A stretch of 203 bases of DNA, taken from Escherichia coli (GTDB lineage: Bacteria > Pseudomonadota > Gammaproteobacteria > Enterobacterales > Enterobacteriaceae). The position numbers and the translations under genes were made by a program. Below are positions 1-203 of the stretch, piece by piece (the stretch's first letter is position 1; every line of letters starts with the position of its first letter). The notes under the pieces were generated by a model that saw nothing but the letters and a program-made list of their open reading frames with translations, was not told the DNA's origin and ran no database searches. The DNA lies in NCBI RefSeq assembly GCF_003334335.1, contig NZ_QOWQ01000246.1; one strand, given 5' to 3'.

Positions 1-132
1 GACAGGGTTTCCCCGTCTCAGTGGGCGGCAATAGGCGTGCTGGGGAGTCTGCTGTTTGGGCTGCTGACATATCTGACGAACCTGTATTTCAAAATTAAAG
101 AAGACCGGCGTAAGGCGGCCCGGGGAGAGTAG
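1..132 (+). CDS. essQ: Phage holin, class II (phage 21 S / S21 pinholin family), 3' portion with stop codon; 5' end lies upstream of the window
   Basis: Frame 1 is open from base 1 to TAG at 130-132 and translates to [43 protein letters not shown]. This closely matches my recollection of the phage 21 S holin C-terminus (...[26 protein letters not shown](R/K)[10 protein letters not shown]) and the E. coli K-12 prophage holins EssD/EssQ. It has the expected architecture: a hydrophobic Gly/Ala/Ser-rich helix ([23 protein letters not shown]) followed by a short charged tail. I chose essQ over essD only because the downstream gene is not an endolysin, as in the Qin arrangement; essD-like is equally defensible from this fragment. 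Confidence 0.85.
22..90 (+). other. Region encoding the second transmembrane helix (TMD2) of the pinholin, with small-residue (G/A/S) spacing typical of a glycine-zipper-like helix packing face
   Basis: The translated segment [23 protein letters not shown] is 23 uninterrupted hydrophobic/small residues, with G/A/S at roughly i, i+4 spacing ([11 protein letters not shown]). It is followed immediately by the charged tail [13 protein letters not shown]. In S21-type pinholins TMD2 is the pore-lining helix (established knowledge); the exact boundaries here are estimated by eye. Confidence 0.6.
122..129 (+). promoter_or_regulatory. Shine-Dalgarno / ribosome-binding site for the downstream ORF, embedded in the last codons of the holin gene
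   Basis: GGGGAGAG at 122-129 has a GGAG core at 124-127, giving 8 nt to the ATG at 136 (6 nt if measured from GGAGAG, 124-129). The purine-rich run overlaps the holin codons R-G-E and sits just before the stop, an arrangement typical of translational coupling. Confidence 0.6.
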
Positions 133-135
133 ACG

Positions 136-203
136 ATGAATAAACAATACGAACTGGTTGTTAAAGGGATAAATAATTACCCGGATAAGATTACTGTTAC
201 TGT
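136..203 (+). CDS. ydfR: Small hypothetical protein, N-terminal 22 codons only (MNKQYELVVKGINNYPDKITVT...); probably a YdfR-like (DUF1327-type) protein of prophage lysis cassettes; 3' end lies beyond the window
   Basis: ATG at 136-138 is preceded by a well-spaced SD, and the frame is open to the window end. The segment is about 31% GC against about 56% upstream, with codon usage consistent with an AT-rich coding region. The gene symbol is assigned by synteny recall (in the K-12 Qin prophage the order is essQ-ydfR-rrrQ), not by recognising the sequence itself, so treat it as tentative. The N-terminus does not resemble the SAR endolysin of phage 21 or DLP12 (which begins MPPSLRK...). Confidence 0.6.
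   Translation, partial: MNKQYELVVKGINNYPDKITVT

Follow-up and report, generated by a model that had tools for sequence, protein, structure and literature searches.

The 203-nucleotide stretch of Escherichia coli DNA analyzed here (contig NZ_QOWQ01000246.1, assembly GCF_003334335.1; "the window" below) carries the 3′ end of a phage-21-type holin gene and the start of an open reading frame (ORF) of the YdfR family. From its sequence, the feature appears to be the boundary between the holin cistron S and a YdfR-family cistron in the late lysis cassette of a lambdoid prophage of the phage 21/Shiga toxin (Stx) type. The Shine-Dalgarno (SD) element of the downstream gene is embedded in the last holin codons, and among related prophages this holin-tail element appears to be a shared docking site where the endolysin gene R, YdfR-type genes and YdfR fragments can take one another's place. 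The junction is an ordinary cistron boundary of an already-known kind. Coupling of the downstream gene to holin translation is probably facultative and partial rather than obligatory, and the downstream protein is probably not a component of the holin-endolysin-spanin machinery. We hold this explanation as a whole to be probable, though well short of certain.

Window position 1 corresponds to position 5001 of a full locus of ~10 kb (L001). At 100% identity, the window matches Escherichia phage PhiR5_1 (PV340545.1), for which a literature search found no paper, as well as a prophage carried by E. coli NCTC9112. With a match over at least 80% of the window as the threshold, the junction occurs in 2284 of 5426 complete E. 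coli genomes (~42%). The gene order of the locus is Q, several late-region ORFs, the holin gene S, the YdfR-like gene, an antisense ORF of 86 amino acids, the lysozyme gene R, and Rz. An Rfam scan of L001 4000-7000 returned nothing relevant.

The Shine-Dalgarno element lies within the holin tail

Translation of frame 1 assigns window positions 1-129 to 43 sense codons of the holin, whose full gene occupies L001 4917-5132 and encodes 71 amino acids. The protein matches the Pfam family PF04971, Bacteriophage P21 holin S (E-value 8e-33, residues 5-67 of 71 against model positions 1-63 of 64), and falls into the PHROG holin families 9876 (E-value 1.8e-40) and 20; the matching records all annotate this ORF as holin S or class II holin. 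It displays two hydrophobic segments (hydropathy maximum of 1.70 at residue 36), a short and highly charged C-terminal tail, and a dual-start motif (Met1...Met4) in a protein that begins MYQMEKITT, all of which are traits of the family. These matches identify the upstream ORF as a predicted phage-21-type class II holin. Its putative function would be membrane depolarization releasing a signal-arrest-release (SAR) endolysin, in the context of a downstream endolysin, the lysozyme R, with a SAR-like N-terminus (MNAKIKYGLSAAVLALIAAGASAPEIL). At the dual start (L001 4917-4928), the sequence is MYQMEK, compared with MKSMDK in EssQ of K-12, and has no Lys between the two Met codons. In phage 21, it is the Lys between the two Met that sets the antiholin apart from the holin.

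The last three holin codons, CGG GGA GAG (Arg-Gly-Glu, window 121-129), contain a GGAG core located 8 nt from the AUG of the downstream ORF, a distance within the functional range. The best duplex between the 25 nt upstream of this AUG and the 3′ end of the 16S rRNA (ACCUCCUUA) has a free energy of -8.5 kcal/mol, which places it in the top 4.6% of all 25-mers in the 10-kb locus. The start codon at window position 136 is well supported, because position 1 of the DUF1327 Pfam model aligns to residue 1 of the downstream protein and Met1 is nearly invariant among its homologues. A first-pass annotation of this stretch had located the SD within the holin codons Arg-Gly-Glu, in an element spanning positions 122-138, with only ACG between stop and start. 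Sequence and translation agree with this exactly, including the 3-nt separation.

In a set of 37 distinct holin genes, the three SD codons have synonymous diversities of 0.05, 0.10 and 0.00, and the two Ala codons just before them are the most variable of the gene (0.29 and 0.59). The variants found at the SD positions are CGG/AGA, GGA/GGG/GGT and GAG, and all 37 genes keep an SD-like purine run. These values are consistent with, and lend weak support to, a dual constraint on the SD codons.

Related junctions share the holin tail and the spacing

We compared 103 distinct junctions, comprising loci with near-identical holins and loci matching the holin-tail pattern. The tail CGG GG(A/G) GAG (CGGGGAGAG) is present in all 103, and the gap from the stop to the ATG is 3 nt in 19 and 4 nt in the remaining 84. 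The gene that follows varies. It is YdfR-type, with several N-terminal variants, in 78 junctions, the SAR endolysin R itself (MSRKLRYGLSAAVLALIAAG...) in 13, and the C-terminal module of YdfR alone in 12. Proteins of this last class start with MNHEEMNQ or MKHEE and share 57% identity with residues 120-333 of P0094, a long YdfR-family member, without DUF1327; their genes (L005 3220-3885 and 11 other loci) lie directly after the holin gene with the same SD and a 3-nt gap. Because an identical tail, SD and gap serve both R (13/103) and an N-terminally deleted YdfR module (12/103), the SD would appear to be a property of the ancestral holin/R joint.

The same organization extends to other phages. 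In the Qin prophage of K-12, the junction reads AGA GGA GAG TAA tcca ATG from essQ into ydfR, where the synonymous Arg codon improves the SD to AGGAG; the 4-nt form also occurs in phage mEp460. The holin end GGT GAG TGA of Pectobacterium phage ZF40 overlaps the ATG of the lysozyme gene, and in a Klebsiella phage the lysozyme ATG lies within an extended holin gene with GGAG ahead of it. The arrangement is not due to chance, since a gap of 3-4 nt after this tail recurs in the 103 junctions, in K-12 Qin and in mEp460. Together these comparisons indicate that P21-family holin genes conserve an SD in their tail together with a gap of 3-4 nt, or an overlap of 1 nt, and that the basic arrangement is one in which this SD drives the SAR endolysin gene R. 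Tight spacing is also common in the locus itself, where 8 of 17 co-directional pairs in L001 have a spacing of at most +3 nt; for E. coli, spacings of -8 to +6 nt account for 24% of co-directional gene pairs (PMC10666635).

The downstream gene is predicted to share a late transcript with the holin gene

A simple consensus scan of the + strand found no sigma-70-like promoter in L001 800-8600, and no promoter-like or terminator-like site in L001 4917-6091. The region as a whole contains 20 terminator-like hairpins against 8.3 ± 3.2 expected, enriched between Q and S. Those on the late strand include one at L001 1275-1295, just after Q, and one at 4851-4879 (a 12-bp stem followed by TTTGTTGTTG) immediately before the holin gene. 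This excess is consistent with a Q-antiterminated late operon that would be expressed only under Q antitermination. Since there is neither room for nor sign of a separate sigma-70-type promoter on this strand, we infer that the holin gene and the YdfR-like gene almost certainly share a single Q-dependent late transcript.

These observations suggest the following history and mode of expression. A YdfR-family gene would have recombined exactly into the holin/R joint, inheriting the translation start signals of R and displacing R by ~960 nt downstream, behind the antisense ORF. Having no promoter of its own, the gene would be transcribed with S from the Q-antiterminated late promoter, and its product would be made late and together with the holin. 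Initiation at the SD could come from newly bound 30S subunits as well as from ribosomes finishing at the holin stop codon. A ribosome terminating on the TAG would cover the SD and the AUG, and the 3-nt gap would suit efficient termination-reinitiation; translation of the holin would also melt any local structure masking the SD.

The predicted mRNA helix at the junction

In the folded mRNA, window positions 47-65 are predicted to pair with 114-134 (L001 5047-5065 with 5114-5134) in an imperfect long-range helix of 18 bp. This helix is both the minimum free energy (MFE) and the centroid structure in four sequence contexts. A fold begun at window position 61 shows no structure because the 5′ arm is cut off, and longer contexts reveal the helix. 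The stop and spacer bases pair with a probability of ~1.0 and the SD with one of 0.3-0.8, the AUG is predicted to be unpaired, and the local opening energy ranks at the 28th percentile among all windows of the locus. The z-scores of the helix are -1.05 and -0.87, and 30 of 200 shuffled sequences fold as well. Over 34 distinct homologous junctions, covariation is absent (score of 0.055, compared to 0.056 in the shuffled control) and the variable columns mostly break helix pairs, with pair 24-85 forming in 6 of the 34 and pair 14-97 in 8. Across variants, the predicted opening energy of the ribosome-binding site (RBS) ranges from 5.4 to 18 kcal/mol, with values of 6-8 in most YdfR-type junctions. 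With z-scores near -1, no covariation, and a weaker structure in most other YdfR-type junctions, the helix is unsupported as a selected element.

The downstream protein belongs to the YdfR family

The downstream ORF (L001 5136-5771) encodes 211 amino acids. Residues 1-112 of the protein match Pfam PF07041 (DUF1327; E-value 1.8e-39), residues 1-74 share 45% identity with K-12 YdfR (BLASTP, E-value 2e-20), and NCBI names it a YdfR family protein. On these matches, the ORF is assigned to the YdfR/DUF1327 family. The protein collection contains 644 member sequences for exactly this 211-residue protein, which is soluble and acidic (isoelectric point of 5.2) and has no transmembrane-like or signal segment.

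The family is confined to enterobacterial prophages and is modular, built from a conserved N-terminal domain (residues ~1-75), a helical segment and a KKRRDEQFAAFYDYC module, to which a further domain may be added. Family ORFs at the sampled junctions are mosaic and range from 104 to 330 amino acids in length. The C-terminal module (KKRRDEQFAAFYDYCIEVTRRNFVKAFEESKSLQ) recurs in many family members of 169-211 amino acids, one of them from Salmonella. The structure model of the N-terminal domain is confident (predicted local distance difference test, pLDDT, of 86.5). The full-length model is poor (pLDDT of 54), so only the N-terminal domain model was used. Function searches with the downstream protein gave no match in NCBIfam, PADLOC or the PDB sequences, its PHROG matches were to families of unknown function only, with no lysis PHROG among them, and a Foldseek comparison with viral structures gave no match at an E-value of 0.001 or below.

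Experimental data on the YdfR family come from a single report. Residues 1-72 of K-12 YdfR interact with RNase E's N-terminal half, which holds the catalytic domain, in a two-hybrid assay; Rne(1-598) co-purifies with Strep-YdfR, as does RNA; and K-12 ydfR is silent in standard growth, with overexpression altering few transcripts (PMC13232886). The 45% identity between the present protein and K-12 YdfR covers exactly the RNase E-interacting region. The downstream protein is most likely a cytoplasmic accessory factor of the late phase; like K-12 YdfR, it may act on RNase E or RNA.

Alternative explanations

The degree to which the downstream gene depends on translation of the holin is open to more than one explanation. 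It might be expressed purely by independent 30S binding, with the 3-nt gap a product of genome compaction or a recombination scar. The strong SD (-8.5 kcal/mol), the AUG that is predicted to be free, and the normality of tight spacing in this phage (8 of 17 pairs) all fit such independence, but termination 3 nt ahead of the AUG leaves the ribosome sitting physically over the SD and the start, and the gap remains at 3-4 nt in every one of the 103 junctions whatever gene follows, suggesting constrained spacing. When native E. coli pairs were re-spaced to +2 nt, moreover, 30-95% of the coupling was kept, and it was largely lost by +38 nt (PMC10666635). We consider a complete lack of coupling unlikely. 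At the other extreme, the predicted helix between holin codons 45-51 and the SD, stop and spacer could close the RBS so that only ribosomes translating the holin open it, making synthesis of the YdfR-like protein strictly proportional to that of the holin. RNA unfolding is a classic mechanism, reviewed together with reinitiation as one of two models of coupling (PMC12548453), and the persistence of the helix as MFE and centroid structure, the high pairing probabilities at the stop and spacer, and an opening energy of 13.2 kcal/mol in this variant would agree with it. The unremarkable z-scores and shuffles, covariation no better than the control, the lower opening energies of most other YdfR-type junctions, the unpaired AUG and the local opening energy at the 28th percentile argue the other way, and strict dependence is rather doubtful. 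In lambda and phage 21, holin nonsense mutants still make endolysin, which would argue that a joint of this kind can initiate on its own. What we favor is partial, facultative coupling. The two genes are co-directional, their 3-nt gap falls within the range of about -8 to +6 nt characteristic of coupled pairs, and a single transcript is predicted; the geometry permits termination-reinitiation, because a ribosome on the TAG lies over both SD and AUG and coupling is retained at +2 nt (PMC10666635). Some dependence on holin translation is thus likely, and obligatory coupling in amount is not established. The proposal that the downstream protein is probably coupled to the holin in both amount and timing is therefore supported as far as co-expression from the one late transcript goes, and unsupported for amount, given the strong SD, the free AUG and the unsupported helix.

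The position of the gene also invites the idea that its product takes part in lysis as a functional component of the module, such as a regulator of the holin or endolysin, with the tight junction setting its stoichiometry to the holin. In a large proportion of E. coli prophages the gene does occupy the place between S and R; in K-12 Qin, ydfR is packed tightly on both sides, with a 4-nt gap before it and an ATGA overlap with rrrQ after it; very short spacing is enriched for subunits of complexes (PMC10666635); and the delta-ydfR mutant was a primary hit in an envelope-integrity screen (PMC3879167 supplement). However, near-identical holins are followed directly by R, with no YdfR gene, in 13 of the 103 junctions, and the gene is accordingly dispensable for the cassette. 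A lysis role is not implied by position, because the same holin tail, SD and gap serve R directly in those 13. Members of the family are mosaic and often truncated or left with the C-terminal module alone; the protein has neither a transmembrane nor a signal segment and finds no match in lysis PHROGs, NCBIfam, PADLOC or PDB sequences; the sole biochemical data point to RNase E and RNA; and the envelope hit lacks validation, with polarity on the overlapping endolysin gene as a confounder. We judge a role in the lysis module improbable, and the earlier suggestion that the protein acts with or on the lysis machinery is not supported. Still more improbable, in our assessment, is that the downstream ORF is a decaying pseudogene and the junction a relic without present function. 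The NCBI Prokaryotic Genome Annotation Pipeline (PGAP) does flag the copy in NCTC9112 (L002 5136-5477) as "incomplete, missing C-terminus", and ORF lengths at this position vary from 26 to 330 amino acids over all downstream classes. But the 211-residue ORF is intact, its exact protein occurs in 644 member sequences, its C-terminal module recurs in many family members of 169-211 residues, and its N-terminal domain folds confidently; the PGAP flag is probably a model-length artefact.

The first-pass annotation had set a functional part of the lysis module against an independent insertion with its own promoter. The absence of such a promoter agrees with the + strand consensus scan, which detected none between the genes; the claim of a functional part is not supported, since the gene appears to have been inserted at the holin/R joint. 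The data point to a third option beside these two, namely a promoterless insertion that uses the signals of the cassette.

Several considerations weigh against the explanation we prefer. Co-transcription and the mode of initiation are both deduced from sequence, and a simple sigma-70 consensus scan could miss a weak promoter inside the holin gene. The gene-wide median synonymous diversity of the holin is 0.10, so the SD codons are not exceptional, and the sequences compared are closely related. The opening energy of 13.2 kcal/mol for the RBS of this variant, in which the helix is strongest, favors a stronger dependence on holin translation. The link to RNase E comes from one study of a homologue with 45% identity, by two-hybrid and overexpression pull-downs, with little effect on the transcriptome. 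Lastly, the delta-ydfR mutant of the Keio collection scored as a primary chlorophenol red-β-D-galactopyranoside (CPRG)-positive hit for envelope leakiness (PMC3879167 supplement). This could hint at a connection to the envelope or lysis, although a polar effect on the overlapping rrrQ would be simpler; ydfR overlaps the rrrQ start, so polarity or read-through within the cassette probably confounds the result.

Features of the window and neighboring elements

The features of the window are collected in Table 1.

Table 1. Coordinates of features in the 203-nt window.
Feature	Position	Strand	Basis and remarks
Holin 3′ part, last 43 sense codons (DRVSPSQW...)	1-129	+	Translation; second transmembrane segment and charged cytoplasmic tail of the 71-aa protein
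Predicted mRNA helix, 5′ arm	47-65	+	MFE and centroid folds, significance not established; holin Ser-Leu-Leu-Phe-Gly-Leu-Leu
Predicted mRNA helix, 3′ arm	114-134	+	MFE and centroid folds; part of the SD, the stop and two spacer bases; AUG left unpaired
Shine-Dalgarno element GGGGAGAG, core GGAG 124-127	122-129	+	Sequence; within holin codons Arg69-Gly70-Glu71
Holin stop TAG	130-132	+	Same reading frame as the downstream ORF
Intercistronic spacer ACG, 3 nt	133-135	+	Sequence
YdfR-family ORF, ATG 136-138 and first 22 codons (MNKQYELVVKGINNYPDKITVT)	136-203	+	ORF continues past the window

The holin and YdfR-like ORFs lie in one frame with only TAG-ACG between them. Low-level read-through of the TAG would produce a holin-YdfR fusion, a pinholin with a cytoplasmic extension of 213 residues, which might act as a built-in antiholin or tether the RNase E-binding domain at the membrane. 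The 3-nt junctions, which keep the two genes in one frame, end in TAG or TGA in 17 of 19 cases and in TAA in 2, while all 84 of the 4-nt junctions end in TAA. This association of an in-frame arrangement with a leaky stop is not absolute and is weaker in the larger sample of 103 junctions. The existence of TAA with a 3-nt gap, and the fact that the junction types are few and related by descent, weigh against read-through, and nothing indicating a read-through signal was found. We regard such a fusion as extremely improbable. One database protein, P0080 (184 amino acids, PF04971 and PF07041), is a holin-YdfR fusion that owes its origin to a frameshift within the holin tail.

Between the YdfR-like gene and R lies an antisense ORF of 86 amino acids (L001 5719-5979, minus strand), which overlaps the 3′ end of the YdfR-like gene by 53 nt and matches phrog_2572, of unknown function, over its full length (E-value 3.6e-50). 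It has a strong SD (GAGGTGA) and, on its own strand, a terminator-like hairpin at 5576-5549, within the YdfR-like coding region. The label DUF1823 that this ORF bears in the phage record is unsupported (E-value 0.042). The start of the lysozyme gene R has no recognizable SD in the sequence ahead of it (L001 6074-6093, cctgataaatatccATGA). The sequence before R is a relic of the ATGA overlap between the ydfR 3′ end and rrrQ of K-12 (catcataaatatctATGA), which is kept in mEp460 too. R appears to have lost its upstream coupling partner, because no + strand ORF of at least 20 amino acids ends at the R start in L001.

Comparison with known systems

The closest counterpart is the essQ-ydfR-rrrQ-rzpQ cassette of K-12 Qin (ydfR at L083 4055-4366, minus strand). 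There, too, a P21-family holin with an SD in its Arg-Gly-Glu codons (AGA GGA GAG) is followed by a YdfR-family gene with DUF1327. The K-12 YdfR is, however, only 103 amino acids long, its gene begins after a 4-nt gap, and its stop codon overlaps the rrrQ start in an ATGA. The present protein has 211 amino acids with an added helical C-terminal part, and its gene is preceded by a TAG stop and a 3-nt gap that place both ORFs in one frame; the 86-residue antisense ORF and a 319-nt gap separate it from R. The S/R junction of the phage 21/933W type has an identical or nearly identical tail, SD and 4-nt spacer (...CGGGGAGAG TAA gctg ATG), as found in 13 of the 103 junctions. Its endolysin (MSRKLRYGLSAAVLALIAAGASAPEIL...) is encoded directly downstream, whereas here an accessory gene takes that position and R begins ~960 nt further on without a recognizable SD.

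Coupled gene pairs of E. coli (PMC10666635, PMC12548453) resemble the present one in being co-directional, in belonging to the -8 to +6 nt class, and in having the SD in the 3′ end of the upstream gene. The junction studied here differs in showing no support for a conserved inhibitory structure and no sign of a complex between the products, and its coupling is predicted from sequence. Phage morons provide a further parallel. Like them, the YdfR-like gene is a mosaic element, present or absent between two conserved lysis genes, with a function unrelated to that of its neighbors as far as is known. Classical morons have their own promoter and terminator, whereas in the consensus scan the YdfR-like gene has neither on its own strand; the antisense 86-residue ORF fits the moron pattern better.

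Significance

The junction alone matters little, and it should not count as evidence that YdfR-family proteins are lysis proteins. Its modest added value is that the holin-tail SD can be recognized as a reusable docking site for swapped-in genes, and that the S/R joint emerges as a hotspot of recombination and expression in lambdoid prophages. Proteins of the YdfR family, whose genes lie beside the holin gene in ~42% of the complete E. coli genomes, are probably made in the very last phase of the lytic cycle. Late expression, together with the reported binding to RNase E, gives a concrete context in which the function of the family can be tested.

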